From the NCBI GenBank assembly GCA_000004695.1, contig CM000150.2, forward strand, positions 2,496,001 to 2,560,000: DNA of 64,000 nucleotides. Direction: 5' to 3'. Of the stretch, positions 5,629-43,393 are shown one piece after another. Position 1 is the first letter of the stretch; every line of letters begins with the position of its first letter. The translations under genes were made by a program, and so were the position numbers. Source of the stretch: Dictyostelium discoideum (taxonomy: Eukaryota). Below the pieces are notes generated by a model, which was not told where the DNA came from, searched no databases, and was given only the letters and a program-made list of their open reading frames with translations.

Positions 5629-5686
<58 letters not shown>

Positions 5687-7456: not shown

Positions 7457-7458
<2 letters not shown>

Positions 7459-7576
7459 TCTTTTTTATATGAAAAATGAAATAATCAAAAAAAGAGATTG
7501 TTGTTGTTGTTTGTTTTTTTCGATCTCTAATTAATTAATGACCTAATCTAGTAATTAAAATTTATTTATAACAAAT

Positions 7577-7649: not shown

Positions 7650-7663
7650 AATTTTAAAATAAT

Positions 7664-7935: not shown

Positions 7936-8109
7936 TTATTTAAATAAATTTTTAAATATAACTTTCAAAGAAATTACATTATTGGTTTTAAATTTAGAAT
8001 TTAAATATATCTTTTTTCATGAAAAATCCAATTCAAAAAAAAATCTTTTTTCATGAAAAAAAATTATTATTTGATTGTAAATTTTGATTTTGATTTAAAA
8101 AATATTGAT

Positions 8110-8586: not shown

Positions 8587-8699
8587 TAAAATTAAATCTG
8601 AATTATCAACTAAACATCTTTTTGGTTCAATTTCTAAATACTTATTCCCACATATATTATAAACGTTGTTTATTAATTGATTTAATTATAGTATCTGAA

Positions 8700-9723: not shown

Positions 9724-10017
9724 TTCTTAGATCTAGTATAAAAAAAAAAAAAAAAAAAATGAATCTATTTTTGCATTGAAATCTAAATTTGGATTTTTTT
9801 AAAAAAAAACGAACGAATTTTTGTTTCAGAAAAAAAAAAAAAAAAAAATTGATTCTTTTTTTTGTGAAAAAAAAAAAAAAAAAATGAATCTATTTTTGCA
9901 TTGAAATCTAAATTTGGATTTTTTTAAAAAAAAACGAACGAATTTTTTTTTTATTGTTTTCGAGCATCTCTACAAATCTTTTTTAATTTTTTTTTACGAA
10001 ACAGTTCTAAAATGTTT

Positions 10018-10049
<32 letters not shown>

Positions 10050-10113
10050 CTCAAAAAAAAATTATTAAATCTCAGAATATGTTTTTTTAAATCATATTTA
10101 AATTAAATAAAAA

Positions 10114-12047
10114 ATGGTAAAATATAAAATAATAATATCATTTTTATTTTTTATTTTATATTGCAATTGTTTCACATTTGGTAGTTACACATTTGATACA
10201 AAAAATTGGTCAACAAATGGTACACTATCATCATGTGTTTTTTATGATTTTGTAAATAACGATTATTATGATTTAAGAGCTATTGTCCACAATGATCATC
10301 AAGGTCCTTACAAAGCAAGTTTTCCTGCCGAACTTCCTGGTGGAATTCAAACACCTTATACAATGTATTTTAATCCTTGTTTTAATGATAATGTGTGTCC
10401 AGGTGGTCTTTCAGTAGGTTGTATGAGTTATGTGCAAAATTCACAAAAAATTCTTAATTCCGTTGGTTCACTTTCAGAGCCACATTCTATAACATTAAAT
10501 TCAGAAGGTATTTCTATTGAATATCAATCAGCTCTTTTACCATCAACAACATGTGCCTCTAATGGTAACCGTAGAACTTTGGTTTTATTTATTACTTGTA
10601 TCCCAACCGAAACATTTAAAATTATTGGTACTTATAACAGAAGAGTATTATGTGAACATACAATTTATATATCTTCAAAATTAGTTTGTAAAGATAGAGG
10701 AATATTATTTAATCAAGGTCTATTTTATGATTTAACACCAATGAAATTGTAAGTTGTTAAATTCTTTTTTATATTTTTTTTTTATTTTAATTTTTTTTTT
10801 TTTTTGTTTTTAATAAAAAAAAAAAAAACCAAACACGAAATTTTTTGTTTTTAATAAAAATTAAAATATCTAACCACTTTTTTTTCAATTTTTTATTTTT
10901 TTCTTCCCACAGATTAGCAAGCACTTCACACCAAATTACCAACAGTGACCAAACACAAGATATTCTCTTTAATTTATTCGGAAATGTAAATAGATGTGGT
11001 ACTTTCGGTACATCAACATTAAGTTATCAATCATGTATTTTAACAGTTGCTAATAAAGTGATCGATTATAAACTAGATTCAAGATATGCAACATCACCAA
11101 AATCAGTTATGGTAGGATCTCTCAGTCAACCAAGAACAATTACATTTACAAATGATGTAATAACCATAATTTATAGTTCAACAACTGGTTTCACAGAATG
11201 CTCATCAAATGGTAACAAATATTCATCAAAGTATATTTTAATTTGTGATCCATTCACAGAATATTATGTAGATAAATTTACATTAGAATCACAATGTATT
11301 TATCAAATTAAGGTTTATACTAAATACGCATGTCCAACATTACGTTTATTCAAACAAACACAATATTATGACCTTTCACCATTGATGTTGTAAGTATTCA
11401 ATTTATTCTTGTATTTCTTCAAAACAGTTATTAATTATTAATAATAAAATAAATAATAGGGATTCAACAAGAAATTATACAACAAGTCATATTACAGACG
11501 GATATGAGTATAATATTGTATTCAATATTGGTAATAAAGCACAAATGTGTAGCGATGCATTTAATGATTATTATTTTGCTTGTCAATATGATCCACGTTA
11601 TAAAAGTTTTAATCCACTTGCAAAGGCAAGTTTAGGTCAAAGAGTAACATTTGATTTAAATCAAGTTAAATTCGAATATACTTCACCAATGTCAGGTTGT
11701 TTAAGAACTTTTATTATTGTTTTAACTTGTGATGAAAACCAACATTATCAATTAGTTTCAACTTTAGAATCTCCTGCATGTGTATATACAGTAACAATTG
11801 AAACTAAATATGTATGTGAATCAACAATTTATTACAATAGATTCGACTATACATATTATGATATTACTCCAATAAAAACGTAAGTTTTAAATTAAATTTG
11901 AAATTAAATTTAAATATAAATAATAATATTAATAATATTAATAATCTTTATTGTCAACAACTAAAATATTAATTTAATTAGAGAAAAAGATAGTCCAAAT
12001 AAAATAGATATTGTTGTTGGTGGATATCCATATAGAGTAAGTAAATT

Positions 12048-12100
<53 letters not shown>

Positions 12101-15100
12101 AACAAATATTTTTCTAATAGCTTTTTTATGGTATCGGTAATACTGTTGATTATTGCGGAGAACAAGTGGGATCAGTCCCTGGTGTAGATTATCAAGCTTG
12201 TCAATATCTCAGTGGTCTTGTTATTCAAGTCGGTAGTTTAAAAAATACATCAATGATTCTTAATAAGGATGGTATAAGTATATATCATACCTCACCATTC
12301 GATTTAACCAAAGTGTGCCAAAATACAAGATATCAAAGAGTAAACATTTTAAATATGGTATGTGATCCAACAGCAACAAATGTTGTGGTCAGCGCTACTG
12401 AGACTGCCAACAATTGGGCATGTGAATATACAATCGAAATTAAAACTAAATATGCATGTTCAATTAATTATGCACCAGTATTACCAGTTGTTGGAAATCC
12501 ATGTTTATACAGTTGTACACCACCAGGTGCTTTAAATCCAAAAGCTATAGTTAGTGTACTTTTAAATTTAGGTGTTTGTTTCTCAGAGATTAATAAATAT
12601 GGTACAGGTGCACAATCATTACTTAATATATTTAAAGATACTTGGGTTTCAAATCACAATGGGTATGATGATTGGATGGGTGGACAACTTTATTCACTAT
12701 TATTAACAGGTAAACCACAGTCAACAATTTCACCATATGTTATTTCAATTACACATGATAATTTATGTACATATGGTGCCGATGGGTTAAGTAAAGCAAA
12801 AAATTCAATCAATGATTTTCTTACTATTACAAATGATCTTCTTGAAATTTCAAATCGTGCAGTTAGTTTAACCGTTACCAAATATACATATTCAGATGGA
12901 GCAATTACATTATCAACACATAAACTTTTATCAACATCAACTGGAGGTCTTGCAATTATTAAATACAAAAATTTGCTATGCTACTATTCAATAGTCCCAA
13001 ATTTACAAACTTTAATTATTGGGAGTTATTTGCTTTCTTGCCCATATTATTCACTACCAACTATTACAGTGCACAGTTTAACACCATCAATAGGGAAAGT
13101 TGGAGATACTATCACAATTAATGGTCAAAATTTAGATACAGATATATATGATGTTTATTTCAACATTATTGATGACAACAGTAAAATTAAAGCAACAATA
13201 ACATCAAGAACCGTAAATTTTGTAAAAGTAATTGTTCCAAATGGTTTTGGTAATGCATTAGTCTACACTCAAAATATACTTAATCCAACTACCTCCGATA
13301 AACTTTCATTTTCATATCCATCACCAACGATTGTCAAAGTAATTAGTCAACCATTTAGTACAGGTATCATCAATAGATTCTTTGTTATTGGTCAAAACCA
13401 TCGTTCTTTAATAACCAATATTGTTATTAATCCATACATCGATAATATTGAAAAAGAAGCAATTTATTGTGAAATTGAAAAGTATTGTCCAAGTTCATCA
13501 AAAATTCCATCGATTTCAGGATCAGCAGTAGGTCATCCATGTATTGATTCAACAGTTTACTCTGAGAATTCCCAGTTTTTCGATTATTCCAAGTATGATG
13601 TTTTTGTTTGTATCAAATCATCATTAGGTGTTGGAAGTGGTATCATTAAATTCCCATCACAAACATTTACATTTGCATACTCTTATAAAGCACCTCTCTT
13701 ATATTTTGTACCACCTGGCATTCGTATTCCAACTGATGGTGGTAGTTTTCAATTGGATGGTAAAAACTTTCCGCCAACACAAGAAATCATTGATCTCGGT
13801 TTAAACACACCTGTAATCATTTGGAATAATGATAATTTTGTTACATTCAAAGGAACAAATCTTGCAAATACCAATATCAATTGGAAGAGTTCGAAATCGA
13901 TTTTATGTGTTGCACCACCTGGTTTCGGTGGACCATTCATCGTTACAGTAACTGTCGGTAAACAAGTGTCAAAGACTATATATCCAAGTGATTTAGATGA
14001 AAATCCAACAAATTATAATTTATATTATTATCCCCCAGCAGTTGTTGACATATCAGAAGTTTCAACTGATGGTGGTGAAGTTATAATAAAAGGTACAAAT
14101 TTTATTCCAGCCTCGCTTAAAGATCAAATTAATAATCAACCAATAATCGGTTCACCTCATTCAGTAGAGTTTAATAATGTTTTATCTTCATCATGGACAT
14201 GGATTGATTCAACACATGTAAAAGCCATCGTACAAAAAGGTATTGGTACAATCTCTACAATTGTAAATGTTGGTGGTCAAAGATCTGATTTAAATCCAAT
14301 TCCTGTAAATTTTTACAAAAGACCTGAACTAGATAATAAAAAATATGAAAACTTTGCAAATAGTGATATTTTAATAACTGGTTCTAATTTTATACCAGTT
14401 GGTGTTTCAGCAGGTTCATCAAGTTCTGTCAAAATCGGAGGTATTCCCTGTAACTCTGTAACATGGGTAGATTCAAAATCTGTTATTTGTAATGTGCCAA
14501 TTGGAACTGGTGATAATTTAAATATCCAAGTAACAGTTGGAGGTCAACAAACCGAATTAAATGATTATTTCTCATATTTAGGGCAATGCGATTTCCTCTG
14601 TAGCGATTTATCAAATTTAGTAAGTTTTTAAACATTTTAATTACAGAAAAAAAAAAAAAAACTAAAAAATACTAATTTATTATCATTTTTATCTCAAAGG
14701 AATTAGCAAAAGTTATTGGGGAAAATAAAAAAGATTTAAAGAGTACTCTTTTATTAACAGGTGTATGTTTAGAACAAATTGAGCAATATAATTTCACAGA
14801 TATTAATGATGAAATTGAATCAAGTTGGATTGAAAACTCAATTATTGATGATTGGACAAGTGGTAAATTCTATAACTATTTCAAATCATCAGAATCATAC
14901 TCAACAGTTAAAACACTTGCAAAATATATTACACCAAAGAATCCATGTATTTATGAAAATAAAAGAGTAAAGAATTCATTAGATTACCTTTTTGAAATCA
15001 ATTCAGATATTTTCCATTTAATTGAACTTTCAATTTCATCAAAAATCAGTTATCCAGATTCACCATATGAAACTTATTTCTATGAATCATCAAGCAACCC

Positions 15101-18100
15101 AGAGTATGGTCTTTCAATTATTACATTTGATTCAGCAATTTGTAGCTTTACAGAATCAACTATTCAAGACTATCAAAGTGGAAAAGTATTACAATCATGT
15201 TCAATCATTCCAATTATAAATCAAGTAATTAATCCAACAACAACACTTCAAGCACCATATCAATATTCACTTACAATAATTGGTAGATTATTTGATAGTT
15301 CAACTAGAATATTCTTATCAGGTTATGAATGTCCAATCATTGGTAATATCGCTACTAATCAAAATGATTATATTCAAACTCTTAGTTGTTCAGTACCACC
15401 AGAAATCGAATCATACTCGGCCTCTCAAATTACTTTTTACAATGATTATAGTGAAAATAATATATATAATTTCTTGTTTTATTTTAAAAAATCATTCTTT
15501 TTTAAATATCCAATTTCAACAGTAACTCAAATTCAATACCCATCAAGTGGTCCAATTCAAATGAATTCTGAAATTAAAGTAATTGGTTTTAATTTCTTCC
15601 CATATGGTATTACAAATCCAAGCATTCAAGTTTTTATTGATGATCTTGAATTAACTGATACTATATTTGGATTAACAAGCATAAATGGAGTTGATTCATT
15701 TTCATTTATTGCTTCTGGTTTAGGTTCTTTAAAGTAAGTGAAAAAAAAAAAATTAAAAAAAAAAATTTATAAATATTTATTAATATTTAAAAATATTTTT
15801 TTACAGTTTCATTCGATTATTTTATAGTAATAGTTTACCGATGTTTATAAACGATGATATTAATTTAGAATTCTCATTTGAAAGACCAATTATTAATAGT
15901 ATATTACCAACAAATGGAGATTACAATACAAAAGTTACAATTAATGGTAATAATTTTAGAAAAGGTCAATCAGTAAAAATTGGAGACATATTAGTAAATG
16001 ATATTGAATTCATTTCAAACCAAGAGATTATTGCTTCAGCACCATTTGGATTTATTAGTGGACTTGTAGTTGTTTATTCAGATGATCAATTCAGTTTAGA
16101 AGAAATATCATTTAGTTATACTTCACCAATTATAGACCAAGTTATTCTTTCAAATTATGAATCAAAATTAAACACAACAGGTACAAATTATTTCACAGTA
16201 ATAGGTAGAGGTTTAGGTACATACATTGCAGAACAAGTCGATATTATTATCAATCAAGAGTTTTATGCAAGTTGCGAATTCGATTTCTGTGAAAGTTTAG
16301 AAATTATTGAAGATATAGATATAAAAGATCAAGGAATTTGTCAATATTTAAAATATAATAAATATCAATATATCAATGAAAACTTTGATATATTAAATTG
16401 TATTTTAACCGATTCGATTGGTAAAGATAAATCAATCAGTATCAAAATTTCAGAATTCCAAAACCAAACTTTCACCTACTCTTATTATGAACCATGGATT
16501 GAAAAATTAACACAAAACTCTTCATCAGCAAACACTGATGGTGGTGAAGTTATCGTTATAAATGGTTACAACTTTTTACCATTCGAAAATTTAAGTCCAT
16601 ACTATGAAAACAATGAAACTATTGCACAATGGTTAAATCAATCAGAAATATTAATTGGTGAAAGCTATCTTTGTCAATCAATTAATTGGACCAATTCCTA
16701 TGAATTAAATTGTACAATCCCACCAGGAATTGGTGTTAATCATACAATCATTGTAAAAGTAGGCCTTCAATCATCAAATCATACTGATTATTTGTATTCT
16801 TACGATTCACCAAACCTTGATACAATCAATAACTCCACTGGAAATGAAACACATTACTATTCTTCAACAGATGGTAACAATGAAATTATAATAACAGGTT
16901 ATAACTTTATTCCAAAAGAGTTATCAGATCATTACAACCAGAATGAAAATAAAACCATAAATTCAATACTATTAGGTAAACAATATTGTAATGAAACTAT
17001 TTGGATTAATTCAACAACAGTCAAATGTAAACCAATAGCAGGTATCGGGTCAAATTACAAAATTATCATTAAAGTTGGTAATCAAGATTCAAACGAAACC
17101 GTTTACTTCTCATATGAGAAGCCAATTTTAGATTTAAAGAATTACACAGGTTCAACAAATGGTAATACTGAAATTACAATAACAGGTATCAACTTTATTC
17201 CAAAAGAATTAGCAGATAATAATAATTTCAATCAATCAGAGAACTATATAATGATTGGTGATAATAAATGTAACGAAACTATTTGGATCAACTCAACAAC
17301 AGTTAAATGTAAACCAATATCAGGTACTGGTATCAATCATAGAGTTATAATAACAGTTGGTAATCAAAACTCAAATGAAACGGTCTACTTTTCATATGAT
17401 AAACCAATTTTAGATATTAAAAACTATAGTAGTCCAACTGATGGCAATACTGAAATCACAATAACAGGTGAAAACTTTATTCCAAAAGAATTAGCAGAAA
17501 ATAATAATTTCAATCAATCAGAGAACTATATAATGATTGGTAATAATGAATGTAATGAAACTATTTGGATCAATTCAACAACAGTTAAATGTAAACCGTT
17601 AGCAGGTATCGGGTCAAATTACAAAATTTTCATTAAAGTTGGTAATCAAGATTCAAATGAAACCGTTTACTTCTCATATGAGATGCCAATTTTAGATTTA
17701 AAGAATTACACAGGTTCAACAAATGGTAATACTGAAATTACAATAACAGGTATCAACTTTATTCCAAAAGAATTAGCAGATAATAATAATTTCAATCAAT
17801 CAGAGAACTATATAATGATTGGTGATAATAAATGTAATGAAACTACTTGGATCAATTCAACAACAGTTAAATGTAAACCAATATCAGGTACTGGTATCAA
17901 TCATAAAGTTATCATAACAGTTGGTAATCAAAACTCAAATGAAACGGTCTACTTTTCATATGATAAACCAATTTTAGATATTAAAAACTATAGTAGTCCA
18001 ACTGATGGAAATACTGAAATCACAATTACAGGTGAAAACTTTATTGAAAATTATAATCAAGAAAAACATAATGAAAATGATAATTTCGTTAGAATTGGTG

Positions 18101-20856
18101 AAAATAAATGTAATGAAACAAAGTGGATAAATTCGACAACAATTAAATGTAAAATAATTCAAGGTATTGGTTTAGATTATAAAATAGTTGTAACAGTTGC
18201 CAATCAACAATCAAATGAAAATGTTTTCTTTTCATATGAAAAACCAATGATTGACAGTAAAACACTATTAGCATCAACCAGTGGCAGTGAAACTATTAAA
18301 ATTACAGGTACTAATTTCATTCCATCAACTTTAGTAGAACATTACAACAAAGAAGAAAATAAAGATAACTCAATAAATTCAGTTACTATCAATAACGAGT
18401 TTTGTAATGATATTACATGGATTAGCTCAACAGAACTAACATGTAAACCATTAGCAGGAGTTGGAACCAATCATACTATATTCATTTTGGTTGGAACTCA
18501 AAAATCAAATGAAGAAAACTCATTCTCATATAAACCTCCGAATATTGAAGAGTTTAAATACTACACAGCACCAACACATTCCAATAAAATTATTACTATA
18601 ACTGGTGAAAACTTTATTCCAATCGAATTATTATCAAAAGACAACAGCAATAGTTCAGTACTTATTGATAATATAAAATGTGAAGAAATCAAATGGATTG
18701 ATTCAACAAAAGTTTCATGTCAAGTTCCAGTAGGTCAAGGTAAAGATTTATCGATTAAAGTTAAAATTGAAAATCAAGAAACTGAAGAAAATCAACAATT
18801 TTCATATGATAAACCATTTATTCAATCAATCAATCCAAATAAAGGAAGATGTAATCAAGAAGTATTAATTACAATTCAAGGTGATAGTTTTGGAAAGAGT
18901 GATCAACTAATTAAAATTGGTAATAACGAATGTCAAGATATTCAATTCTATCCAAATCATACATTTACATGTAAAGTTCCAATCGTGGAGAATTCAATTG
19001 AATCCATTGTTTTATTAAATGTTGGCAATCAAGATTCAAACGATAACATTACATATAAATACTATGGACCACCAGAAATTAAAAGTATTGGTTTACCATC
19101 ATATCTTTCATTCAAAGGTGATGATTTAATTACAATCATTGGTAATAACTTTATAGAATATGATGATGGATCTGATGAAATTGTTAAATTTAATAATGAA
19201 CCAACAACTATCATTGAAAACACAGAAACATACATTAAAATTAAAACTCTTAGTGGTGATGAATTTAATGTACCAATTGCTGTAGAATTAAATGGTCAAA
19301 TAAGTAATACAGATACTTCATTCGTTTACTCAAATCCAATAATTGAAAGTGTAACACCATCATCAAGTAGCTCAAAATCAAATACTAATATCATCATTAA
19401 AGGACATAATCTTGGGTATTTAACAAACACTCCCAAAATTACAATTGGAAGTAGTAATTGTTTAAATATCAAAACTATATCTCCAAATGAAATTCATTGC
19501 ATCGTTATGAAATCAAGCGCAGGCACTAAACAATTAACATTAACCTATGAAAGTTATCAACCAACCTATTCACAATTCACTCACAAAAACGATGATGACA
19601 GTGATAGCCACGATGATGATGATGATGACCATAAAAACAATAATGGACCAAAAAACACCATATTAAGTATTCTTGGAGGTATAATTGGAGCAGCAGCATC
19701 AGCAGCCGTAAGTGGATTTATAACAAGCATTTTCGGTGGTGCGACATCAGTAGCCACAGCAGCAGCAACAGCAACAGCAGCAGGTACTGCGGTAGCAGCA
19801 GCAACTACAGCGTCAACAGCAACAGCTATTGCCGGTGCAATTACCGAAGGTGTTGCAGTGGCCTTTACAGGGGTATCAGTAATAGCAGCAACAGCAGGTG
19901 GTGTTGTTATTACTTCAATTGTAACAGCAACAGCCATCCTTATTTCAGGTGGAAGTACACAATCACCAACTCCAACCATAGCTCCAACTATTTCACCAAC
20001 TCCAACGCCAACCGATAACTATTGGGTAAGATGTATGGTCGATTATTCAAGATTAACTTTACAAGTCGATAATCTTTACGGTCAAGATATAGTATGTATT
20101 GATGGTAATGGAATTTCATCAATTTTCAACGAATCATTCTCTTGTAAACCTGATCTTATTAACGATGGTATGATATGTGCTCAACAACATCAAGATGGAA
20201 CAAATTCAACAACCACATTTGGTAATTCAACATTAATTTGTCATATTGACTCAACAAAATCATGTGAAATTTCACCACCATTCATCATACCATCCGATCC
20301 AATTGAAGATGATGAATATTCAAATATTCTAGAATGTCAATATAATCTCATTGAAAATTCATTATCAACACACTCTAATAATAGTCCACTAAGATGTTAT
20401 AATAATGAAACTGAAAATTACTTCATTATGAATACTACACTTTCATGCTCAAAAGATGAATCATTAAGTCAAGATAAAGATACGATTTCTTGTTTAGCAG
20501 ATACAGATGACACTCAAATCTTTTTCTATAAGAACTCAATTACATGCATTACAGATTATCCATACTATAGATGTACAATGAAATCTCAACCATCACAAGA
20601 TGATAACATAATTCCAAAACCAACATTACCACCAATTCCATCAATTGATGATGATTCCACATGTATTTATGATTCAGCCAATTCATATTCAATAGATCTC
20701 CAACTAACGACTGGAACTAATGCTAAATGTCCAAAAAATGAAAAAGAACTTCGTTATGATCTTTCAACTTCTCTAACATGCACTGATTATATCACACTTA
20801 AAAACTCCACTTATTCAATTTCATATTCAAATTACATTTGCATTAAAACAAAATAA
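10114..20856 (+). CDS. giant secreted/membrane glycoprotein with 4 CI-MPR-like (MRH) repeats plus IPT/TIG repeat array plus Ala/Thr hydrophobic block plus Cys-rich C-terminal domain; copy 1, 7 exons: 10114..10748, 10913..11389, 11460..11879, 11982..12036, 12121..14619, 14700..15733, 15807..20856 (about 3389 aa)
   Basis: Signal peptide MVKYKIIISFLFFILYCNC. Exons 1, 2, 3 and the start of exon 5 each encode a roughly 150-aa Cys-containing domain ending in a C-x-Y-x-h-x-h-x-T-K-Y-A/V-C motif (CIYQIKVYTKYACP, CVYTVTIETKYVCE, CEYTIEIKTKYAC, CEHTIYISSKLVCK). Each is followed by YDLSPL/YDLTPM/YDITPI, the pattern of cation-independent M6P-receptor repeats. All introns are GTAAGT...AG, AT-rich, and phase-consistent. 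Exons 5-7 encode many roughly 96-aa beta-sandwich repeats (…TDGNTEITITGENFIPKEL…CNETIWINSTTVKCKP…VGNQ.SNETVYFSYEKP…) typical of IPT/TIG domains, with N-glycosylation sites throughout. C-terminal part: acidic HDDDDDDH, roughly 100-aa GC-rich Ala/Thr hydrophobic low-complexity block, PT-rich linker, then a roughly 290-aa Cys-rich domain. Confidence 0.65.
17118..18050 (+). repeat. tandem array of near-identical 288-bp units (alternating A/B variants) encoding IPT/TIG-like repeats inside exon 7
   Basis: Units starting EKPILDLKNYTGSTNGNTEITITGINFIPKELADNNNF… (A) and KPILDIKNYSSPTDGNTEITITGENFIPKELAENNNF… (B) recur A-B-A-B with almost identical nucleotide sequence. Paralogue copy 3 (38951..43393) has exactly one A-B pair fewer (1480 versus 1671 aa in the last exon). 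Confidence 0.7.
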
Positions 20857-20895
20857 AAACAATTAAAAAATTTTAAAAAACAAAATGATATAATA

Positions 20896-20974
20896 ATTTA
20901 ATGAAATAATTTAATTACTATTTTTACTATTTTTTTTATTTTCAAAAAACTGTAATTAAATTATTTCATTAAAT
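20896..20974. repeat. 23-bp perfect inverted repeat in the convergent 3' intergenic region between the receptor-like gene and the next DNase II-like gene
   Basis: atttaatgaaataatttaattac (20896..20918) and gtaattaaattatttcattaaat (20952..20974) are exact reverse complements separated by about 33 bp. The same structure is retained downstream of copy 2 (about 29655..29735). Confidence 0.5.
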
Positions 20975-21194
20975 CATTATGTCACACCACCCAAAATTCA
21001 ATTCTGAAAACTTTTTTTATTTAATTACCCTTAAGAAAAAATTAAATGTGAAAATAAATGTTATATTTATTTTAGTTTTGTTTTTTTTTTTAAATTATCA
21101 TTAATAATAATGATGCACCATTTGGTATTATCTAATTTTGAAAACTAAAAAAAAAAAAATTTATTTTTGGAATTAGTTAAATTTAAAAAAAAAT

Positions 21195-23300
21195 TTAAAT
21201 TAAAATATAATTAATACTTACACCTTTGGTATATTCACCCAAAACTTTTGTAAATTCCTTAATGGAATTGATGTTTTGTAGATCACCATGTCTATTTTCA
21301 GTTAAGAGAATACAATAGATAAGATGATCTTGGCAATCTGGATGATATTTAATGATTTTTGAGTCTGTATCACTTGGAAAAGCTTTACATATTTTTTTAT
21401 TAATTTCATTATAATCCTTATGACCTTTTTCGCTATCACTTTGATCGCCTTCGATTTTATTTGGGAATTTAAATGGTACTAAATCATTGATTTCAACTTC
21501 TTTCAATTGAATGATGTTTTTATTTTTAATAAATTTCAATTTTTCATAAAGTTCTTTTACTAAATCAATATTTTTTAAATCGATATATATCTTATCTGGG
21601 AAAGGTGTGAGTATTGATGTTGGTTCGATAATGGTATTTTGTGTTAGAGCAGTTACCTTTTTATTATCTCTTGATGAGGTAAGTGTAAATGTTGATTCAA
21701 CATAGATATCTTTAAACAATTGGTAAGATTTGGATTTTTCAAAGCTACAAGTGACATCATCATTATCACATAAAATAATTTCCCCATTGATTGATGGAAA
21801 CACATTGAAATCGAATAACTCTGATTTGTATATATTTTGATCCTTAAGTTGGGTTAATAGTGGAATATAAACATTGTCATAACCATAGTTATATTCATTT
21901 GAAAATAATTTATCTTCATCTTTTTCATTATTGTAAACGATATTAAATGGATTCAAATGATAGTATTTTTCATCATCTCCATAACCTTTTACCTTGGTTT
22001 CAAAGTTTAGCTTTCTGTTACCTAAAACATTAGATCATTTGGATATTTTTCTATTAATTCGTTTAAATTCAACTTTTGACCTGCAATGCTATTTAATCTT
22101 AAAGAAGCTTTTCTAAGATATTGACCATCCTCTGGGTGTCTAATTATACCAACTCTTCTGTAAAAGTATTCAGAAAGATATTTCATTTCGTCACTGCAAA
22201 AAGAACCACCTCCACGTGCCTCTTGCCTTCCATGCCAATTTAAATCACCAAAGCAAATAGTCCCACCACCGCCACCGCTATATGCTTTATCCATATAATT
22301 GATTTGATAAGACATTTTTGAATGGTCACTTCCTGAATCAGAGCTAATAACTGTTGACCAAGGTGTTTCGAATCTGTAAGAAAGATATATTGATACAACT
22401 GCTGGAGACATTTCATTTTTTCCTTTTTCCATCTTTGTTTGAGTATGGACCATTGTTTTAAAATTATTACCATTTTTAAAACTATAGATGTAATGCCAAA
22501 GTATAAAAAATTTAATTTTTTCCTTGTGAGTATTTTCAATTTTATCACTATACTCTTTATAAAGGTGTGTATTTGTTGTTTGAATGAAGTAATCCCCTTT
22601 ATTTTTACTCTCATAAATTTTATTATAGTGAACATTTGTTTCATGAGCTGTATCTGATGATGTAATATTTTTGTTTAGAATTAAATCTGCCTATTTTAAG
22701 AATGTAAGTTTGATGATTTATTAACACAAATTTATAATTAAAATTACTTACCAATTGTGACCATTTATTTAAATAAATAATTCCATCCCATATATCAGGA
22801 TCAACTTTATTCTTTTTTTTAACAAAAATATTATCACTCATTAGATCATCCAATTCTTTAAAAGTTTTGGGAATTTTTGTTTCTAAAATTGAACTATCAA
22901 TTTTTTCCAACTTAATGACTCCTGAGCTTATCTTTTCAACCTCTGTTTGAAGATTTTCGGAATAAGAATCGGCTGATGATACCTTTTTAACCTTTTTACC
23001 ATTTCCTGTTGAAACTGTATTAATGGTTTGAATATTTAAATTACTATAAATAATATACTTTGGAATAATATAAAGTTCTTCTTTTGACAAAGTTATACAA
23101 ATTGAATGTTGAGCATGTTGATGATTTAAAGTATTTTTATCGAAATTAAAAAGAGGTTCATATCCTGTTTCTGGAGATCTTGGAACACTGTGAATTACAT
23201 GAATTCCCCCATTTTCATTCCAAATGAAAAATCCTTTTGCATGTGCCTTTTTTAAATAAATAAATTAAAAAAAAAAAATATGTTAACAAATAATGATAAC

Positions 23301-23337
<37 letters not shown>

Positions 23338-23734
23338 AATAATAAACACAAACACTATCTTCACCACTACTGAGCTGATCATTATAAGTCAAACTATTAT
23401 ATATAATTTTGTTGTCAGATTTATTTGGTAAACTCTGTTTGTATGTAGATGTAATAGGGTTTGGTTCTTTTGGATCTCTAATATTATAATTTGCAATTTC
23501 ATTTATCTCTGAACTTCCTCCTTTTAATGTGTTATCAGTATAAATAGCACCTTGACTGTGACTTAATTGTTCTAAAAACCACCATTCGACATTCTTTTCT
23601 ATTTTAACTCCATCCTCAAATACTTGACTATCCTTGTAAATATTTTTTGTTGTTATACATTTTGGAGGATCGTTACAATAAATAGGTGATATTAATACAA
23701 ATAAATATAAAAAAATAATATATTTATTTCTCAT
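21195..23734 (-). pseudogene. DNase II-like gene, copy 2: 3 exons present but reading frame broken in exon 3
   Basis: Exon 1 (23336..23734, signal peptide MRNKYIIFLYLFVLISPIYC) and exon 2 (…AHAKGFFIWNENGGIHVIHSVPRSPETGYEPLFNF…MSKEELYIIPKYII…) are intact. In exon 3 a 5-bp deletion relative to copy 3 (near 22030) shifts the frame. This gives ORFs 22022..22453 (…DHSKMSYQINYMDKAYSGGGGGTICFGDLNWHGRQEARGGGSFC…KYPNDLMF*) and 21195..21956. Confidence 0.5.
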
Positions 23735-24164
23735 TTTCTTAAGTCTAATGTTATAATGTTTGTTTCAATTTTTTAAAATTGGGTGTGTTTTTGCGAAAAA
23801 AAAAAAAAAAAAAAAAAAAATGGCTTTGTCGTCAACAAAAAAGAAAAAAAACTAAAATTGGATCATTTAAAATAAAATAAAAAAACGAACGAAAATATTT
23901 TTTTTTAATCGTTTTTAGATGGTTTTACCACTCCTTTGATTATTGAAAATCTTTTTTAAATATTTTTAGATTTTTTTTTTTTTATTTTTTTCGACCCATT
24001 ATTTTATAAAAAAAAAAATAATAAAAATTACCCCCACAAACCGCTTTTTTTTTTTTTTTTCACAAAGCCTGGTTTTTAATTTTTTTAACACTTTTTGGCT
24101 TTGCATCTTTATCGCTTAAAATACGGTTTGGAAAATACAACATTTTTTTTTTAATCAACCATAC

Positions 24165-24196
<32 letters not shown>

Positions 24197-24221
24197 TCGT
24201 ATTGAAATTAAAAAAAAATGG

Positions 24222-25808
24222 TAAAATTTTAAATAGTTATATCATTTTTATTATTTATTTTATATTTTAATTGTTTCACATTTGGTAGTTACACATTTGA
24301 TACAAAAAATTGGTCAACAAATGGTACACTATCATCATGTGTTTTTTATGATTTTGTAAATAACGATTATTATGATTTAAGAGCTATTGTCTATCCTGAT
24401 CATCGAGGTTCCCACAGAGCAAGTTTCACAGCTGAGCTTTCTGGTGGAATTCAAACACCATATACAATATATTTTAATCCTTGTTTTAATGATCATATGT
24501 GTCCAGGTGGTCTTTCAGTAGGTTGTATGCAAAAATAGAGGAGTATTATTTAATCAAGGTCTATTTTATGATTTAACACCAATGAAATTGTAAGTTATTA
24601 AATTCTTTTTCATATTTATTTTTTTATATTTTTTTTTTTTAAAATAATTATCAAAAAATAAAAAAAAAAAAGAACCAAACACAAAATTTCAAAATAAAAA
24701 AATCTAATCTTTTTTCACTTTTTTTTATTTTTTTTTAATTTTTTTATTTTTATTTTTTTTTCCCACAGATTAACAAGCACTTCACACCAAATCACCAATG
24801 ATGACCATACAAAAGATATTCTCTTTAATTTATTCGGAAATGTAAATAGATGTGGTACTTTCGGTACATCAACATTAAGTTATCAATCATGTATTTTAAC
24901 AGTTGCTAATAAAGCGATCAATTATAAACTAGATTCAAGATATGCAACATCACCAAAATCAGTTATGGTAGGATCTCTCAGTCAACCAAGAACAATTACA
25001 TTTACAAATGATGTAATAACCATAATTTATAGTTCAACAACTGGTTTCACAGAATGCTCATCAAATGGTAACAAATATTCATCAAAGTATATTTTAATTT
25101 GTGATCCATTCACAGAATATTATGTAGATAAATTTACATTAGAATCACAATGTATTTATCAAATCAAAGTTTATACTAAATACGCATGTCCAACATTACG
25201 TTTATTCAAACAAACACAATATTATGATCTTTCGCCATTGATGTTGTAAGTATTCAATTTAATTAAAAAACTTTTTTGGTGTTTTATTCTTTTGCGCTTA
25301 TTAATTATTAATAATAAAATAAATAATAGGGATTCAGCAAGAAATTATACAACAAGTCACTTTACAGACGGATCTGAGTTTTTTATTGTATTCAATATTG
25401 GTAATAAAGCACAAATGTGTAGCGATGCATTAAATGATTATTATTTTTCTTGTCAATACGAACCACGTCAAAAATTTTTTTATCCACTTGCAAAGGCAAG
25501 TTTAGGTCATAGAGTAACATTTGATTTAAATCAAGTTAAATTTGAATATACTTCACCATCAACAACAACTTGCTCATCAAATTCCTATAAAAGAGATCTT
25601 ATTGTTATTTTAAATTGTGATGAAAACCAACATTATCAATTAGTTTCAACTTTAGAATCTCCAACATGTGTATATACAATAACAATTAAAACTAAATATG
25701 TATGTGAATCAACAATTTATTACAATAGAATTAACTATACCTATTATGATATTACTCCAATAAAAACGTAAGTTTTAAATTAAATTTAATTATAAATTAT
25801 AAATTATA

Positions 25809-25874
<66 letters not shown>

Positions 25875-28800
25875 TATAACTTTATTAACAACCAAAACTA
25901 TTAATTTTAATTAGAACAAAAGATAGTCCAAAAACTGTAGATATTGTTGTTGGTGGATATCCATATAAAGTAAGGGATAATTTTTAAATTTTTAAATTTT
26001 TTTTTTTTTTTTTTTTTTTTTTTGACAAACACCAAACGTGTGTGAAACTAAAATTTAAATATTTTATATATATTTAAAAATGGTTACTAACTTTACTTTA
26101 TTAATTTTTTCCAACAGCTTTATTACGGTATAGGTAATACTGTTAATTATTGCTCAAATCAAGTGGAGTCAGTTCCAGGTGTTGATTATCAAGCTTGCCA
26201 ATATCTCAGCGGTCTTGTTATTCAAGTCGGTAGTTTAAAAAATACATCAATGTATATAAGTAATAATGGTATAAGTATATATCATACCACACCATTTGAT
26301 TTAACCAGAGTATGCCAAAATACAAGATATCAAAGAGTGATACAACAGCAATTAACGTTGTGGTCAGCGCTACGGAGACTGCCAATTATTGGGCATGTGA
26401 ATATACAATCGAAATTAAAACCAAATATGCATGTCCAATTAATTATGCACCAGTATTACCAGTTGTTGGAAATCCATGTTTATACACTTGCACACCACCA
26501 GGTGCTTTAAATCCAAAAGCTATAGTTTGTGTACTTTTAAATTTAGGCTTGTTTCTCAGAGATTAATAAATATGGTACAGGTGCACAATCATTACTTGTT
26601 ATATTCAACAATACTTGGGTTTTAAACCACAACGGATATGATGATTGGATGGGTGGACAACTTTATTCACTATTACTAACAGGTAAACCACAAACATCGA
26701 TTTCACCATATGTTAGTTCAATTACACATGATAATTTATGTACATATGGTACCAATGGGTTAAGTAAAGCAAAAAATTCAATCAATGATTTTCTTACTAT
26801 CACAAATGATCTTCTTGAAATTTCAAATCGTGCAGCCAGTTCAACCGTTACCAAATATACATATTCAGATGGAGAAATTACATTATCAACACATAAACTT
26901 TTGTCAACATCAACTGGAGGTCTTGCAATTATTAAATACAAAAATTTGCTATGCTACTATTCAATAGTTTCAAATTTACAAACTTTAGTTATTTCGAATT
27001 ATTTGCTTTCATGTCCATATTATTCACCAACTATTACAGTGTTCAGTTTAACACCATCAACAGGGCAAATTGGAGATATTATCACAATTAATGGTCAAAA
27101 TTTAGATACAAATAGATATGATGTTTATTTCAACATTATTGATGACAACAGTAAAATTAAAGCAACAATAACATCAAAGTAATTAGTCAACCATTTAGTA
27201 CAGATATCATCAATAGATTCTTTGTTATTGGTCAAAACCATCGTTCTTTAATAACCAATATCACCATTTATCCATATATCGATAATATTGAAAAAGAAAC
27301 AATATATTGTGAAATTGAAAAGTATTGTCCAAGTTCATCAAAAATTCCATCGATTCCAGAATCAGCAGTAGGTCATCCATGTATTGATTCAACAGTTTAC
27401 TCTGAGAATTCTCAGTTTATAAGGTACAAATTTTATTCCAGCCTCGCTTGCAGATCAAATTAATAATCAATCATTAATTGGTTCACCAAATTCAGTCACG
27501 TTTAATAATGTTTTATCTTCATCATGGAAATGGATTAACTCAACACATGTAAAAGCCATCGTACAAAAAGGTATTGGAGCAATCCTTACAATTGTAAATG
27601 TTGGAAGCCAAAGTACTGAAACGAGTCCATATCCCGTAATTTTTTATAAACAACCTGAATTAGATAATAAAAAATATGAAAACTTTGCAAATAGTAATAT
27701 TTTAATAACTGGTTCTAATTTTGTACCAGTTAGTGTTTCAGCAGGTTCATCAAGTTCTGTCAAAATCGGAGGTATTCCCTGTAACTCTGTAACATGGGTA
27801 GATTCAAAATCTGTTATTTGTAATGTACTAATTGGAACTGGTGATAATTTAAATATCCAAGTAACAGTTGGAGGTCAACAAACCGAATTAAATAATTATT
27901 TCTCATATTTAGGGCAATGCGATTTCCTCTGTAGCGATTTATCAAATTTAGTAAGTTTTTAAACATTTTAATTACAGAGGAAAAAAAAAACTAAAAAATA
28001 CTAATTTTTTACATTATAATCTCAAAGGAATTAGAAAAAGTTATTAGAGAAAATAAAAAAGATTTAAAGCAATAGTTCAGTACTTATTGATAATATAAAA
28101 TGTGAAGAAATCAAATGGATTGATTCAACAAAAGTTTCATGTCAAGTTCCAGTAGGTCAAGGCAAAGATTTATCGATTAAAGTTAAAATTGAAAATCAAG
28201 AAACTGAAGAAAATCAACAATTTTCATATGATAAACCATTTATTCAATCAATCAATCCAATTAAAGGAAGATGTAATCAAGAAGTATTAATTACAATTCA
28301 AGGTGATAGTTTTGGAAAGAGTGATCAACTAATTAAAATTGGTAATAACGAATGTCAAGATATTCAATTCTATCCAAATCATACATTTACATGTAAAGTT
28401 CCAATCGTGGAGAATTCAATTGAATCCATTGTTTTATTAAATATTGGCAATCAAGATTCAAACGATAACATTACATATAAATACTATGGACCACCAGAAA
28501 TTAAAAGTATTGGTTTACCTTCACATCTTTCATTTAAAGGTGATGATTTAATTACAATCATTGGTAATAACTTTATAGAATATGAAGATGGATCTGATGA
28601 AATTGTTGTTAAATTTAATAATGAACCAACAACTATCATTGAAAACACAGAAACATACATTAAAATTAAAATTCTTAGTGGTGATGAATTTAATGTAACA
28701 GCAACAGCCATCCTTATTTCAGGTGGAAGTACACAATCACCAACTCCAACCATAGCTCCAACTATTTCACCAACTCCAACGCCAACCGATAACTATTGGG

Positions 28801-29629
28801 TAAGATGTATGGTCGATTATTCAAGATTAACTTTACAAGTCGATAATCTTTACGGTCAAGATATAGTATGTATTGATGGTAATGGAATTTCATCAATTTT
28901 CAACGAATCATTCTCTTGTAAACCTGATCTTATTAACGATGGTATGATATGTGCTCAACAACATCAAGATGGAACAAATTCAACAACCACATTTGGTAAT
29001 TCAACATTAATTTGTCATATTGACTCAACAAAATCATGTGAAATTTCACCACCATTCATTATACCATCCGATCCAATTGAAGAGATGAATATTCAAATAT
29101 TTTAGAATGTCAATATAATCTCAATGAAAATTCATTATCAACACACTCTAATAATAGTCCACTAAGATGTTATAATAATGAAACTGAAAATTACTTCATT
29201 ATGAATACTACACTTTCATGCTCAAAAGATGAATCATTAAGTCAAGATAAAGATACGATTTCTTGTTTAGCAGATACAGATGATACTCAAATCTTTTTCT
29301 ATAAGAACTCAATTACATGCATTACAGATTATCCATACTATAGATGTACAATGAAATCTCAACCATCACCAGATGATAACATAATTCCAAAACCAACATT
29401 ACCACCAATTCCATCAATTGATGATGATTCCACATGTATTTATGATTCAGCCAATCCATATTCAATAGATCTCCAACTAACGACTGGAACTAATGCTAAA
29501 TGTCCAAAAAATGAAAAAGAACTTCGTTATGATCTTTCAACTTCTCTAACATGCACTGATTATATCACACTTAAAAACTCCACTTATTCAATTTCATATT
29601 CAAATTACATTTGCATTAAAACAAAATAA
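24222..29629 (+). pseudogene. MRH/IPT receptor-like gene, copy 2: decayed, internally deleted remnant
   Basis: Exon-1 homologue has a 1-nt insertion giving ATG GTA AAA TTT TAA, plus a roughly 300-bp internal deletion (24222..24590). Exons 2 and 3 remain (24965..25249, 25292..25771). The exon-5 homologue is fragmented by frameshifts and deletions (26163..27182 and following). The whole region equivalent to 14640..18640 of copy 1 is missing. The C-terminal fragments 28407..29105 and 29201..29629 carry a precise deletion of the Ala/Thr block (…EFNV|TATAILISGG…). Confidence 0.6.
25811..25870. repeat. (AAT)n microsatellite in intron 3 of receptor-like copy 2
   Basis: About 20 perfect ATA/AAT triplets. 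The orthologous intron of copy 1 (11885..11975) has only a few. Copy 3 has about 40 (34897..35019). Confidence 0.8.
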
Positions 29630-29953
29630 AAACAATTAAAAAATTTTAAAAAACAAAATGATATAATAATTTAATGAAATAATTTAATTACTATTTTTAC
29701 TATTTTTTTTTATTTTCGAAAAACTGTAATTAAATTATTTCATTAAATCATTATGTCATACCACCCAAAATTCAATTCTGAAAACTTTTTTTTTATTTAA
29801 TTACCCTTAAGAAAAAATTAAATGTGAAAATAAATGTTATATTTATTTTAGTATTGTTTTATTAATTTAAATTATTAATGCACCGTTTATCTAATTTTGA
29901 AAACTAAAAAAAAAAAAATTTATTTTTGGAATTAGTTAAATTTAAAAAAAAAT

Positions 29954-32497
29954 TTAAATTAAAATATAATTAATACTTACACCTTTGGTATATTCACCCA
30001 AAACTTTTATTAATTCATCATTGGATTTGATGTTTTGTAGATCACCATGTCTATTTTCAGTTAAGAGAATACAATAGATAAGATGATCTTGGCAATCTGG
30101 ATGATATTTAATGATTTTTGAGTCTGTATCACTTGGAAAAGCTTTACATATATTTTTATTAATTTCATTATAATCCTTATCATCATGACCTTCTTCGCTA
30201 TCACTTTGATCGCCTTCGATTTTATTTGGGAATTTAAATGGTTCTAAATCATCTTTGATTTTAACTTCTTTCAATTGAATGATGTTTTTATTTTTAATAA
30301 ATTTCAATTTTTCATAAAGTTCTTTTACTAAATCAATATTTTTTAAATCGATATATATCTTATCTGGGAAAGGTGTGAGTATTGATGTTGGTTCGATAAT
30401 GGTATTTTGTGTTAGAGCAGTTACCTTTTTATTCTTTTTTGATGAGGTAAGTGTAAATGTTGATTCAACATAGATATCTTTAAACAATTGGTAAGATTTG
30501 GATTTTTCAAAGCTACAAGTGACATCATTATCATCACATAAAATAATTTCCCCATTGATTGATGGAAACACATTGAAATCGAATAACTCTGATTTGTATT
30601 TATTTGTAGTTTGATCCTTAAGTTGAGTTAATAATGGAATGTAAACATTGTCATAACCATAGTTATATTCATTTGAAAATAATTTATCTTTTTCATTATT
30701 GTAAACGATAATAAATGGATTCAAATGATAGTATTTTTCATCATCTTCATAACCTTTTACCTTGGTTTCAAAGTCTAGCTTTCTGATACCTAAAATTTCT
30801 TTTAGACGCTGTGGATATTTATCTATTAATCCGTTTAAATTCAACTTTTGACCTGCAATGCTATTTAATCTTAAAGAAGCTTTTATAAGATATTGACCTT
30901 TATCTGGGTGTCTAATTATACCAACTCTTCTGTAAAAGTATTCAGAAAGATATTTCATTTCGTCACTGCAAAAAGAACCACCTCCACGTGCCTCTTGCCT
31001 TCCATGCCAATTTAAATCACCAAAGCAAATAGTTCCACCACCGCCACCGCTATATGCTTTATCCATATTATTGAATTGATAAGACATTTTTGAATGGTCA
31101 CTTCCTGAATCAGAGCTAATAACTTCTGACCAAGGTGTTTCGAATCTGTAAGAAAGATAAACTGATTCAACTGCTGGAGATATTGCATTTAGTCCATTTT
31201 CGATCTTTGTTTGAGTATGGACCATTGTTTTAAAATTATTACCATTTTTAAAATTATCGATGTAATGCCAAAGTATAAAAAATTTAATTTTTTCCTTGTG
31301 AGCTTTGTCAATTTTTTTATTATACGCTTTATAAAGGTTTTTATTTGTTGTTTGAATGAAATAATCCCCTTTATTTTTACTCTCATAAATTTTATTATAG
31401 TGAACATTTGTTTCATGAGCTGTATCTGATGATGTAATATCTTTGTTTAGAATTAAAACTGCCTATTTTAAGAATGTAAGTTTGATGATTTATTAACACA
31501 AATTTATAATTAAAATTACTTACCAATTGTGACCATTTATTTAAATAAATAATTCCATCCCATATATCAGGATCACCATCATTCTTTTTTTCAACAAAAA
31601 TATATTCACTCATTAGACCATCCAATTCTTTAAAAGTTTTGGGAATTTTTGTTGCTAAAATTGTACTATCAATTTCTTCCAACTTAATGACTCCTGAGCT
31701 TATCTTTTCAACCTTGGTTTTGAGATTTCTGGAATAAGAATCGGCTGATGATACCTTTTTAACCTTTTGACCATTTCCTGTTGAAACTGTATTAATGGTT
31801 TGAATATTTAAATTACTATAAATAATATACTTTGGAATAATATAAAGTTCTTCTTTTGACAAAGTTATACAAATTGAATGTTGAGCATGTTGATTTTTTA
31901 AAGTCTTTTTATTGAAATTAAAAAGAGGTTCATATCCTTTTTCTGGAGATTGTGGAACACTGTGAATTACATGAATTCCCCCTTCTTCATTCCAAATGAA
32001 AAATCCTTTTGCATGTGCCTTTTTTAAATAAATAAATTAAAAAAAAAAAATATGTTAACAAATAATGATAAACAAAAAAAAAAAAAAAAAAAAAAAAAAG
32101 TTAAATAATAAAAACAAACACTATCGTAACTACCACTGGGCTGATCATTATAAGTCAAACTATTATATATAATTTTGTTGTCAGATTTATTTGGTAAACT
32201 CTGTTTGTATGTAGATGTAATAGGGTTTGGTTCTTTTGGATCTCTAATATTATAATTTGCAATTTCATTTATCTCTGAACTTCCTCCTTTTAATGTGTTA
32301 TCAGTATAAATAGCCCCTTTACTGTGACTTAATTGTTCTAAAAACCACCATTCGACATTCTTTTCTATTGTAACTCCATCCCCAAATACTTGACTATCCT
32401 TGTAAATATTTTTTGTTGTTATACATTTTGGAGGAACACAATAAATATGTGATATTAATACGAATAAATATAGAAAAATAATATATTTATTTCTCAT
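29954..32497 (-). CDS. DNase II-family nuclease (secreted/lysosomal-type) with about 330-aa C-terminal extension; copy 3, the only intact copy. Exons 32120..32497, 31524..32018, 29954..31462 (about 793 aa)
   Basis: Signal peptide MRNKYIIFLYLFVLISHIYC. Exon 2 carries the first PLD-like HxK motif in the DNase II context (AHAKGFFIWNEEGGIHVIHSVPQSP; compare mammalian HTKG…GFWLVHSVPNFP). Exon 3 carries the second (DSGSDHSKMSYQFNNMDKAYSGGGGGTICFGDLNWHGRQEARGGGSFC; compare DHSKW…C[VI]GD[ML]NR…RGGG[TS]LC). Donors are GTTTGT (weak) and GTAAGT. A roughly 330-aa unclassified C-terminal region ends …GEYTKGVSINYILI*. Confidence 0.6.
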
Positions 32498-33045
32498 TTT
32501 CTTAGATCTATTGTCTAATATTATAATGTTTCAATTTTTTAATGGTATAAAAAAAAATTGGGTGTGTTTTTGCGAAAAAAAAAAAAAAAAAAAAAAATAG
32601 CTTTGTCGTCAACAAAAAAGAAAAAAATCTAAAATTGGATCATTTAAAATAAAATAAAAAAACGAACGAAAATATTTTTTTTTAATCGTTTTTAGATGAT
32701 TTTCCCACTCCTTTGATTATTGAAAATCTTTTTTAAATATTTTTAGATTTTTTTTTTTTATTTTTTTCGACCCATTATTTTATAAAAAAAAAATAATAAA
32801 AATTACCCCACAAACCGCTTAGTTTTTTTTTTTTTTTTCACAAAGCCTGGTTTTTATTTTTTGTGACACTTTTTAGCTTTGCATCTTTGTCGCTTTAAAT
32901 ACGGTTTGGAAAATACAACATTTTTTTTTTAATCAACCACTTTAAAATACGGTTTGGAAAATACTATATTTTTTTTTTCAATCAACCACACTCTTTTTTT
33001 TTTTTTTTTTTAAAAAAATAATCATATTGAAATTAAAAAAAAAAA
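32498..33045. promoter_or_regulatory. shared divergent intergenic/promoter region between DNase II-like gene (minus) and receptor-like gene (plus), copy 3
   Basis: 548 bp between two start codons facing away from each other. Contains a tandemly duplicated roughly 50-bp motif (aaatacggtttggaaaatac[a/t]a[c/t]attttttttt[t]aatcaacca, 32891..32990). It is single-copy in copy 2 (24117..24170). Copy 1 (9724..10113) instead has a different duplicated roughly 65-bp block (gaatctatttttgcattgaaatctaaatttggatttttttaaaaaaaaacgaacgaatttt, twice). Confidence 0.4.

Positions 33046-43393
<10,348 letters not shown>

Follow-up and report, generated by a model that had tools for sequence, protein, structure and literature searches.

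The closest described system to the locus reported here is that of tgrB1/tgrC1 and their duplicates in Dictyostelium. In both, gene pairs stand head-to-head and include one gene for an IPT/TIG transmembrane protein, duplication, recombination and inversion occur locally, the partners of a pair decay asymmetrically, and strains differ widely. In ten long-read Dictyostelium genomes, including that of the laboratory strain AX2-214 (N50 5.3 Mb), tgrB is shortened and tgrC typically full-length in 13 of 25 tgrBC loci (Holland et al. 2025, PMC12745789). The present locus is located in a window of 64,000 nucleotides from Dictyostelium discoideum (the whole stretch of DNA that was analysed; assembly GCA_000004695.1, contig CM000150.2, positions 2,496,001 to 2,560,000 of the forward strand). 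It consists of three tandem cassettes, each of which combines a DNase II-like nuclease gene with a giant receptor-like gene. An earlier note on this window had described the middle cassette as a decaying pseudogene pair in an array under birth-and-death dynamics. The analysis supports, with a probability of roughly 0.8, a related reading: the middle cassette is a decayed recombinant unit, and the family is under birth-and-death evolution with superimposed gene conversion.

State of the middle cassette

The cassettes occupy approximately 8697-20910, 20911-29683 and 29684-43443 of this chromosome 1 window, which has a guanine-cytosine (GC) content of about 25%, and are referred to as copies 1, 2 and 3. 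The tandem units are about 95% identical. In each of them, a DNase II-like gene on the minus strand stands head-to-head with a receptor-like gene on the plus strand, with about 0.5 kb between the two. The copy-2 intergenic region, between the two ATG codons, extends from 23735 to 24217 and presumably contains a shared promoter. The receptor-like product carries a signal peptide, MRH-like domains, many IPT/TIG domains and a hydrophobic Ala/Thr block, and has a length of 3,200-3,400 amino acids in the intact copies.

The copy-2 receptor gene (24218-29629, plus strand) is the remnant of a seven-exon MRH and IPT/TIG gene and certainly a pseudogene. It retains only about 50% of a 9,594-nt coding sequence. 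The retained segments are 92.7-98.8% identical to copy 3 at the nucleotide level, and the introns and all retained splice sites are present. Codon 5 is a nonsense codon (24230-24232); the earlier note had seen the stop and had attributed it to a 1-nt insertion, but it results from an AAA to TAA substitution that leaves the sequence length unchanged. The exon-1 deletion comprises 263 bp, not about 300 bp, and shifts the frame (junction 24525-24527, 3-bp microhomology, GTA). The frameshifts and deletions that had been reported in exon 5 are borne out by four deletions, all of them frameshifting: 22 bp (near 26336), 2 bp (near 26548), 130 bp at junction 27174-27177 (4-bp microhomology) and 509 bp at junction 27418 (1-bp microhomology). 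A loss of about 4 kb with exon 6 and most of exon 7 had also been claimed. The loss is real, but measures 3,336 bp (junction 28068-28069, 2-bp microhomology) and takes about half of exon 7: from codon 15 onwards exon 6 is gone (992 of its 1,034 bp), as is intron 6, and exon 7 lacks its first 2,251 bp out of 4,456. The deletion of the Ala/Thr block holds as well: it is a 642-bp in-frame deletion (junction 28694-28697, 4-bp microhomology) that takes the last TIG domain and an acidic stretch together with the hydrophobic block. A 1-bp frameshift deletion at 29083 had been missed. In-frame indels are found in exon 5 (+3 bp and -3 bp) and exon 4 (-3 bp).

All five large deletions (263, 130, 509, 3,336 and 642 bp) have 1-4 bp of microhomology at their junctions, which points to end-joining or slippage rather than recombination between TIG repeats. 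The substitutions specific to the copy-2 receptor comprise 26 synonymous changes, 46 nonsynonymous changes and one genuine nonsense change. Additional nonsense changes at 25471 and 27420 were rejected as artefacts of a two-change codon and of a deletion junction, respectively. The NCBI model ACTFIT_007972 (1,321 amino acids, 'TIG protein') is an annotation artefact that is without a signal peptide and skips each of the receptor lesions. NCBI also has a call of 142 amino acids at 29201-29629. Intron 3 of the copy-3 receptor (34890-35020) contains a long (AAT)n run that is 44 bp shorter in copy 2 (25808) and mostly absent in copy 1.

The copy-2 DNase II-like gene (21195-23734, minus strand; exons 23734-23354, 23246-22752 and 22690-21195) was modelled on the exons of the intact copy-3 gene. 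None of its splice sites is damaged, and it contains no stop when read in the copy-3 frame. Relative to copy 3, the indels are +3, -4, +6, -6, -3 and -6, of which only the 4-bp deletion breaks the frame. As stated in the earlier note, there is thus one lesion and it lies in exon 3, but alignment and sequence place it as a net loss of 4 bp, not 5 bp (AAAG of copy 3, 30799-30802), between 22031 and 22030 at codon 511-512. The frame then reads ...YPNDLMF and ends, two codons on, at a premature TAG (22024-22022). The conceptual product has 514 amino acids, and 282 of the 793 codons are lost. The truncation point is 3' of the catalytic domain, with both HxK motifs kept, and precedes a conserved C-terminal domain.

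Four of the five indels specific to the copy-2 nuclease keep the reading frame, among them the three located past the frameshift, which suggests that the gene stayed under selection until recently. This pattern fits the earlier proposal of a recent inactivation, and the copy-2 nuclease is probably a recently disabled gene. Since the whole DNase II domain is kept, a loss of function is probable rather than shown, and pseudogene status is unproven for the nuclease. The description as a pseudogene pair therefore applies clearly to the receptor only.

The assignment of the nuclease is based on the copy-3 exon-1 and exon-3 open reading frames (ORFs), which score 26.4 and 24.4 bits against Pfam DNase_II (PF03265; cut-off 23), and PF03265 is present in all database homologs of the cassette nuclease. 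The catalytic HxK motifs AHAKG (H128, K130) and DHSK (H414, S415, K416) are invariant in 28 family members, and the DNase II/phospholipase D (PLD) fold is supported for the copy-3 and copy-2 nucleases alike. With an N-terminal signal peptide, the product is predicted to be a secreted DNase II-like enzyme. An extra C-terminal domain of about 320 amino acids is conserved across the paralogs, with E523, C600 and C607 invariant and C730, C748, D750 and C755 nearly so. Comparison of this domain with solved structures gave no convincing structural match, and a profile search of PDB sequences found nothing.

Mosaic ancestry and mode of turnover

The three copies were compared at informative sites to trace the origin of copy 2. 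In the nuclease gene and the promoter region, 254 sites group copy 2 with copy 3 and 20 group it with copy 1. Receptor exons 1-6 show the same bias, interrupted by blocks of different ancestry. At the receptor 3' end (28694-29683, plus strand), copy 2 equals copy 1 at 41 sites and copy 3 at three. The identity of this tract is 99.4% with 19920-20910 and about 95.5% with copy 3. It has six mismatches over the roughly 1 kb that ends at the unit boundary, and past the boundary the divergence is approximately 3-5%. The switch from copy-3-like to copy-1-like ancestry coincides with the junction of the 642-bp deletion. On this evidence copy 2 is a recombinant mosaic, and ectopic recombination or gene conversion also acts on the array.

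The intact receptors of copies 1 and 3 bear similar marks. Their synonymous divergence (dS) is 0.19-0.24 in the N-terminal MRH-like region (33046-35700) and 0.03-0.05 in the TIG stalk (38938-42400), i.e. 4-7 times higher in the N-terminus. This suggests that the receptor stalk has been homogenised by conversion, while the nuclease-proximal end retains old divergence.

A possible course of events begins with a two-cassette ancestor, in which a receptor gene of copy-3 type and one of copy-1 type would have undergone an unequal ectopic exchange, giving copy 2 a copy-3-like nuclease, a copy-3-like 5' part of the receptor and a copy-1-like receptor 3' end. The recombinant receptor may have been defective from birth, or its 3' end may have been patched later from copy 1; such a later conversion or repair may have run as far as the microhomology junction and thereby produced the 642-bp deletion. 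The receptor lost its function through the nonsense mutation at codon 5, followed by the microhomology-mediated deletions and small frameshifts. The nuclease, long under selection, would then have lost its conserved C-terminal third through one 4-bp deletion, a timing that we infer. More generally, as the annotated proteins show, cassettes duplicate, shuffle between two clusters 1.1 Mb apart and lose either partner independently.

The second of these clusters is located on the same contig. It contains an intact DDB_G0270642 nuclease beside a copy-1-like receptor (95.6-97.4% identity) that, in AX2, has deletions of its own of about 3.7 kb and 0.5 kb. The sister-cluster cassette lies at 3514-12596 of its extracted locus and was compared with window positions 8697-20856. 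Copy 1 shows the opposite state, as had been noted before: its receptor of 3,382 amino acids is intact and its nuclease is dead, reduced to exons 1-2 with lesions. The two related cassettes have lost opposite partners, a case of complementary decay. The earlier claim that selection on the two partners is uncoupled within a copy is thereby upheld, copy 1 being in the state opposite to copy 2 and the sister-cluster cassette reciprocal to copy 1.

Gene number and content also differ between strains. Based on annotated proteins only, the nuclease subfamily has about eight members in AX2/AX4, one in each of two wild D. discoideum assemblies, and two and three (plus one) in two D. cf. discoideum assemblies, which represent cryptic sister species. 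In both wild D. discoideum assemblies, the sister-cluster position holds a copy-3-like receptor (93-94.6% identity), which is intact in one (ACTFIW) and annotated as two gene calls in the other. The single nuclease at this position in each of them shares just 71% identity with DDB_G0270642, its AX2 counterpart. Receptor fragments are also present in a D. cf. discoideum array. In D. firmibasis, receptor homologs of 2,117 and more than 6,307 amino acids are syntenic with the sister cluster (UniProt names the D. firmibasis homolog an 'MRH domain-containing protein'), and a tblastn search of this syntenic locus found no DNase II-like gene. The pairing of nuclease and receptor thus seems to be restricted to the discoideum clade or to have been lost in D. 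firmibasis. A homolog search with the N-terminal 1,712 amino acids of the receptor gave two matches only, orthologs of more than 3,000 amino acids apparently not being returned. A Tieghemostelium lacteum gene model of 1,834 amino acids combines the N-terminal half of a DNase_II domain (amino acids 28-237) with at least six TIG repeats. It is either a true fusion or the result of two merged neighbouring genes, and hints at a DNase II-TIG association older than the discoideum clade.

The earlier note had proposed the ratio of nonsynonymous to synonymous divergence (dN/dS) between copies as a check. It ranges from 0.54 to 1.9 over the nuclease paralog pairs; the receptor, analysed in the same way, has a value of 0.47, a significant difference (Fisher p = 2e-7). 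Absolute values may be biased by the extreme adenine-thymine (AT) content; the contrast between the two genes should be robust, being internal to the method. As a pseudogene test for the nuclease, the ratio was dropped: it is 1.9 for copy 2 versus copy 3, and values of at least 1 occur even between intact paralogs (1.25 for two intact recent ones).

Tandem duplicates that include pseudogenes, together with gene numbers and contents that differ between strains and species, are what birth-and-death evolution predicts, and to this extent the earlier claim stands. The family turns over rapidly, through duplication, ectopic recombination and deletion. Pure birth-and-death evolution is expected to leave little homogenisation, yet conversion or recombination tracts are present. 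A number of observations weigh against the reading of copy 2 and its family given above. Divergence is uneven, with 0.6% between the receptor 3' ends of copies 2 and 1 and approximately 4-5% between the nucleases of copies 2 and 3; one crossover cannot account for this, and conversion or repair must have acted at least once more, and more recently. The nonsynonymous to synonymous ratio of the copy-2 receptor (46:26) is not above that of the intact copies (Fisher p = 1.0), and substitution data alone do not show relaxed constraint; the decay is thus dominated by deletions and young on a substitution clock. For the nuclease, slippage in codon repeats weakens the argument from in-frame indels, and the truncated product still has a complete DNase II fold and the two HxK motifs. 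The 4-bp deletion is present in both the AX2-type and AX4 assemblies, which derive from the same natural isolate, so their agreement is silent on the age or population frequency of the lesion. Finally, the strain comparison counts annotated proteins, with the syntenic window locus (cluster A) of the other strains lying outside it. Because copy 2 is a mosaic with a 99.4%-identical copy-1-like tract, the array shows a mixed regime and not pure birth-and-death evolution.

In an alternative account, the cassettes undergo mainly concerted evolution, with homogenisation of the copies, and copy 2 serves as a reservoir that donates or accepts conversion tracts. A role as recombination source has been proposed for pseudogene-like tgrBC duplicates (PMC12745789). 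The nearly identical tract common to copies 1 and 2, the blocks of alternating ancestry in receptor exons 1-5 and the far greater similarity of copies 1 and 3 in the TIG region than in the N-terminal MRH region would all be expected under this account. However, homogenisation has repaired none of the approximately ten disabling lesions of copy 2, the cassette nucleases remain 5-28% divergent, and cassette number and content vary between strains. As conversion and birth-and-death evolution are not mutually exclusive, we regard predominantly concerted evolution as possible but clearly the less probable of the two.

A narrower alternative concerns the nuclease alone, which could be functional either as a 514-amino-acid, DNase II-only protein, as annotated in AX4, or as a protein of 775 amino acids, as in the NCBI AX2 model ACTFIT_007953, which skips the frameshift through a cryptic intron of 59 nt (GTCAAA...TTTTAG, 22022-22080, minus strand). 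The complete DNase II fold and the two HxK motifs are encoded upstream of codon 511, and promoter region and splice sites are all intact. GT...AG boundaries exist at 22080 and 22022, removal of the stretch restores the frame, and confirmed introns of the gene are as short as 61 nt. The donor GTCAAA, however, departs from the GTAAGT, GTATGT, GTTTGT or GTAAGG of ten confirmed introns, and the AT content of the stretch, at 79% versus 83-96% in these introns, would be the lowest of all. All paralogs have conserved coding sequence here, and splicing it out would remove 18-19 conserved codons. On these grounds, the 59-nt intron is probably an annotation artefact. The shorter product would lack about 280 residues that are strongly conserved in all paralogs, including the invariant Cys and Glu; as a weaker point, no gene call for it was found in indexed transcript-derived assemblies. 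A functional copy-2 nuclease is accordingly judged unlikely, and a recently disabled gene remains the preferred reading.

The suggestion that the nuclease lesion, or the lesions in general, might be sequencing or assembly artefacts, to which tandem repeats of 95% identity in an AT-rich genome (about 25% GC) and the commonest type of long-read error, a single small indel, could give rise, is effectively refuted by the AX4 genome, an independent assembly that encodes exactly the same truncated product (DDB_G0270848, 514 of 514 residues identical, ending in NDLMF; a comparison at the level of protein identity only), by the position of the 4-bp deletion outside homopolymers and its neighbouring substitutions, and by the large receptor deletions with their clean junctions. 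The AX4 reference assembly is Sanger-based.

Flanking cassettes and surroundings of the array

The nuclease remnant of copy 1 (8697-9723, minus strand) is of the DDB_G0270642 type. It carries a 4-bp frameshift, a 1-bp frameshift and one stop, and its homology ends four codons into exon 3. The adjacent receptor (10114-20856, plus strand) has seven exons, and its length equals that of the NCBI gene call. In copy 3, both genes are intact. The nuclease (29954-32497, minus strand; exons 32497-32120, 32018-31524 and 31462-29954) is identical over the aligned length to ACTFIT_007952 (GCA_054883475.1, JBTAPE010000039.1). Its gene models, with 793 amino acids here, 798 at NCBI and 812 in AX4 (DDB_G0270850), differ only at the extreme C-terminus. 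Every paralog in GCA_054883475.1 (ACTFIT), an assembly probably of the laboratory strain AX2-214, has an AX4 twin with 99-100% identity. The copy-3 receptor (33046-43393, plus strand) encodes 3,197 amino acids, as in the NCBI gene call, in seven exons (33046-33680, 33861-34337, 34424-34861, 35054-35111, 35240-37735, 37813-38846 and 38938-43393).

A 282-nt unit that encodes TIG sequence in exon 7 occurs five times in copy 1 (16966-18387) and three times in copy 3 (40073-40930). The two additional units account for the different receptor lengths of 3,382 and 3,197 amino acids and show that the TIG repeats expand and contract in-frame. In exon 7 alone, ten stretches match IPT/TIG in Pfam (E = 3e-111). 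The N-terminal part of the receptor has one domain above the threshold for Pfam PRKCSH_1 (27.1 bits, cut-off 23), and three adjacent exon-encoded domains share its Cys pattern and a 'YDL.P' boundary motif. Hydrophobic segments are located at amino acids 2798-2901. No significant Pfam family was found for receptor exons 1, 2, 5 and 6, the receptor C-terminus or the nuclease C-terminal domain.

The array is flanked by ordinary single-copy genes (ESF1-like, ZIP transporter, EMP70, cation efflux). On the left, the ESF1-like gene and a tRNA-Lys gene lie within about 1200-7650; on the right, genes for a protein of 137 amino acids, an EGF-like protein and Sld5 occupy about 45200-48350. Exact look-ups of two flanking proteins, of 287 and 137 amino acids, matched only GCA_054883475.1 and short Logan contigs. 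Its left edge adjoins a retroelement ORF1 of 444 amino acids on the minus strand (5983-7317), identical copies of which are found at no fewer than ten other genomic sites, often next to an RVT_1 ORF2. The element resembles a TRE5-type element. A tRNA-Lys(UUU) gene is located at 7576-7650, left of the array. Because the homology of the copy-1 nuclease stops just rightward, at 8697, an insertion of the retroelement or its target site may be linked to the loss of exon 3.

Comparison with known systems

A search of the literature on the gene identifiers and on DNase II/TIG in Dictyostelium found no paper on the nuclease-receptor cassette family. The nuclease itself can be compared with DNase II, the lysosomal acid DNase (PF03265, structure 5i3e), with which it shares the Pfam match, the two HxK motifs and the signal peptide. 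It differs in its C-terminal domain, in belonging to an expanded, fast-evolving family and in its pairing with a receptor. Likewise, the PRKCSH_1 match and the repeated Cys pattern are common to the cassette receptor and to MRH sorting or lectin receptors, but here these domains belong to a protein that also has about 20 TIG domains and a Cys-rich C-terminus. Animal DNase II is a lysosomal enzyme, and MRH receptors typically sort such enzymes. The cassette nuclease has only one N-glycosylation sequon, and a receptor-cargo relation between the giant receptor and the nuclease is speculative.

It is conceivable, if rather doubtful, that nuclease and MRH/TIG receptor form a cognate two-gene module of the discoideum clade, in which the nuclease would be a secreted or lysosomal effector with its own lectin-type receptor that serves in conflict, defence or non-self discrimination. 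The nuclease dN/dS above 1, the retained divergence of nuclease and receptor N-terminus, the homogenised stalk, the copy-number variation and the T. lacteum model are consistent with such a module, as is the presence in trans of at least one intact partner of each type (the copy-1 receptor and the DDB_G0270642-type nuclease 1.1 Mb away). If so, copy 2 would be a discarded specificity.

The pseudogene in the middle copy is in itself ordinary gene-family turnover and matters mainly for annotation: ACTFIT_007953 and ACTFIT_007972 thread invented introns through its lesions, and the truncated nuclease figures in AX4 as an ordinary protein. The family as a whole combines fast protein evolution, recombination between cassettes, complementary decay and an approximately eight-fold range of annotated copy number among isolates, traits that are hallmarks of conflict or recognition loci. 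Loci of the tgrB1/C1 type are a central research topic in D. discoideum. Should the pairing prove functional, the cassettes would constitute a second, independent hypervariable system, and the family may deserve experimental attention.

The array is not a member of the tgrB/C hotspot. Judged by AX4 gene identifiers, it lies on the 4.92-Mb chromosome, which is chromosome 1, and not in the chromosome-3 tgrBC hotspot. The partner in the cassettes is a DNase II-like enzyme and not a second TIG protein, and the receptor is three to four times larger and has MRH-like domains. A limited search found no Tgr proteins among the matches to the C-terminal half of the receptor, and we know of no role of the array in allorecognition.

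On a wider scale, the array can be set beside tandem families such as the major histocompatibility complex (MHC), immunoglobulin, plant NLR and olfactory receptor genes, whose birth-and-death evolution was reportedly described by Nei and Rooney. Duplicates from unequal crossing-over, diverging copies, non-processed pseudogenes and copy-number differences between lineages are common to these families and to the cassettes. In contrast to them, the unit of turnover here consists of two genes whose partners die independently, so that losses can be complementary, and conversion tracts are superimposed on the birth and death of the copies.

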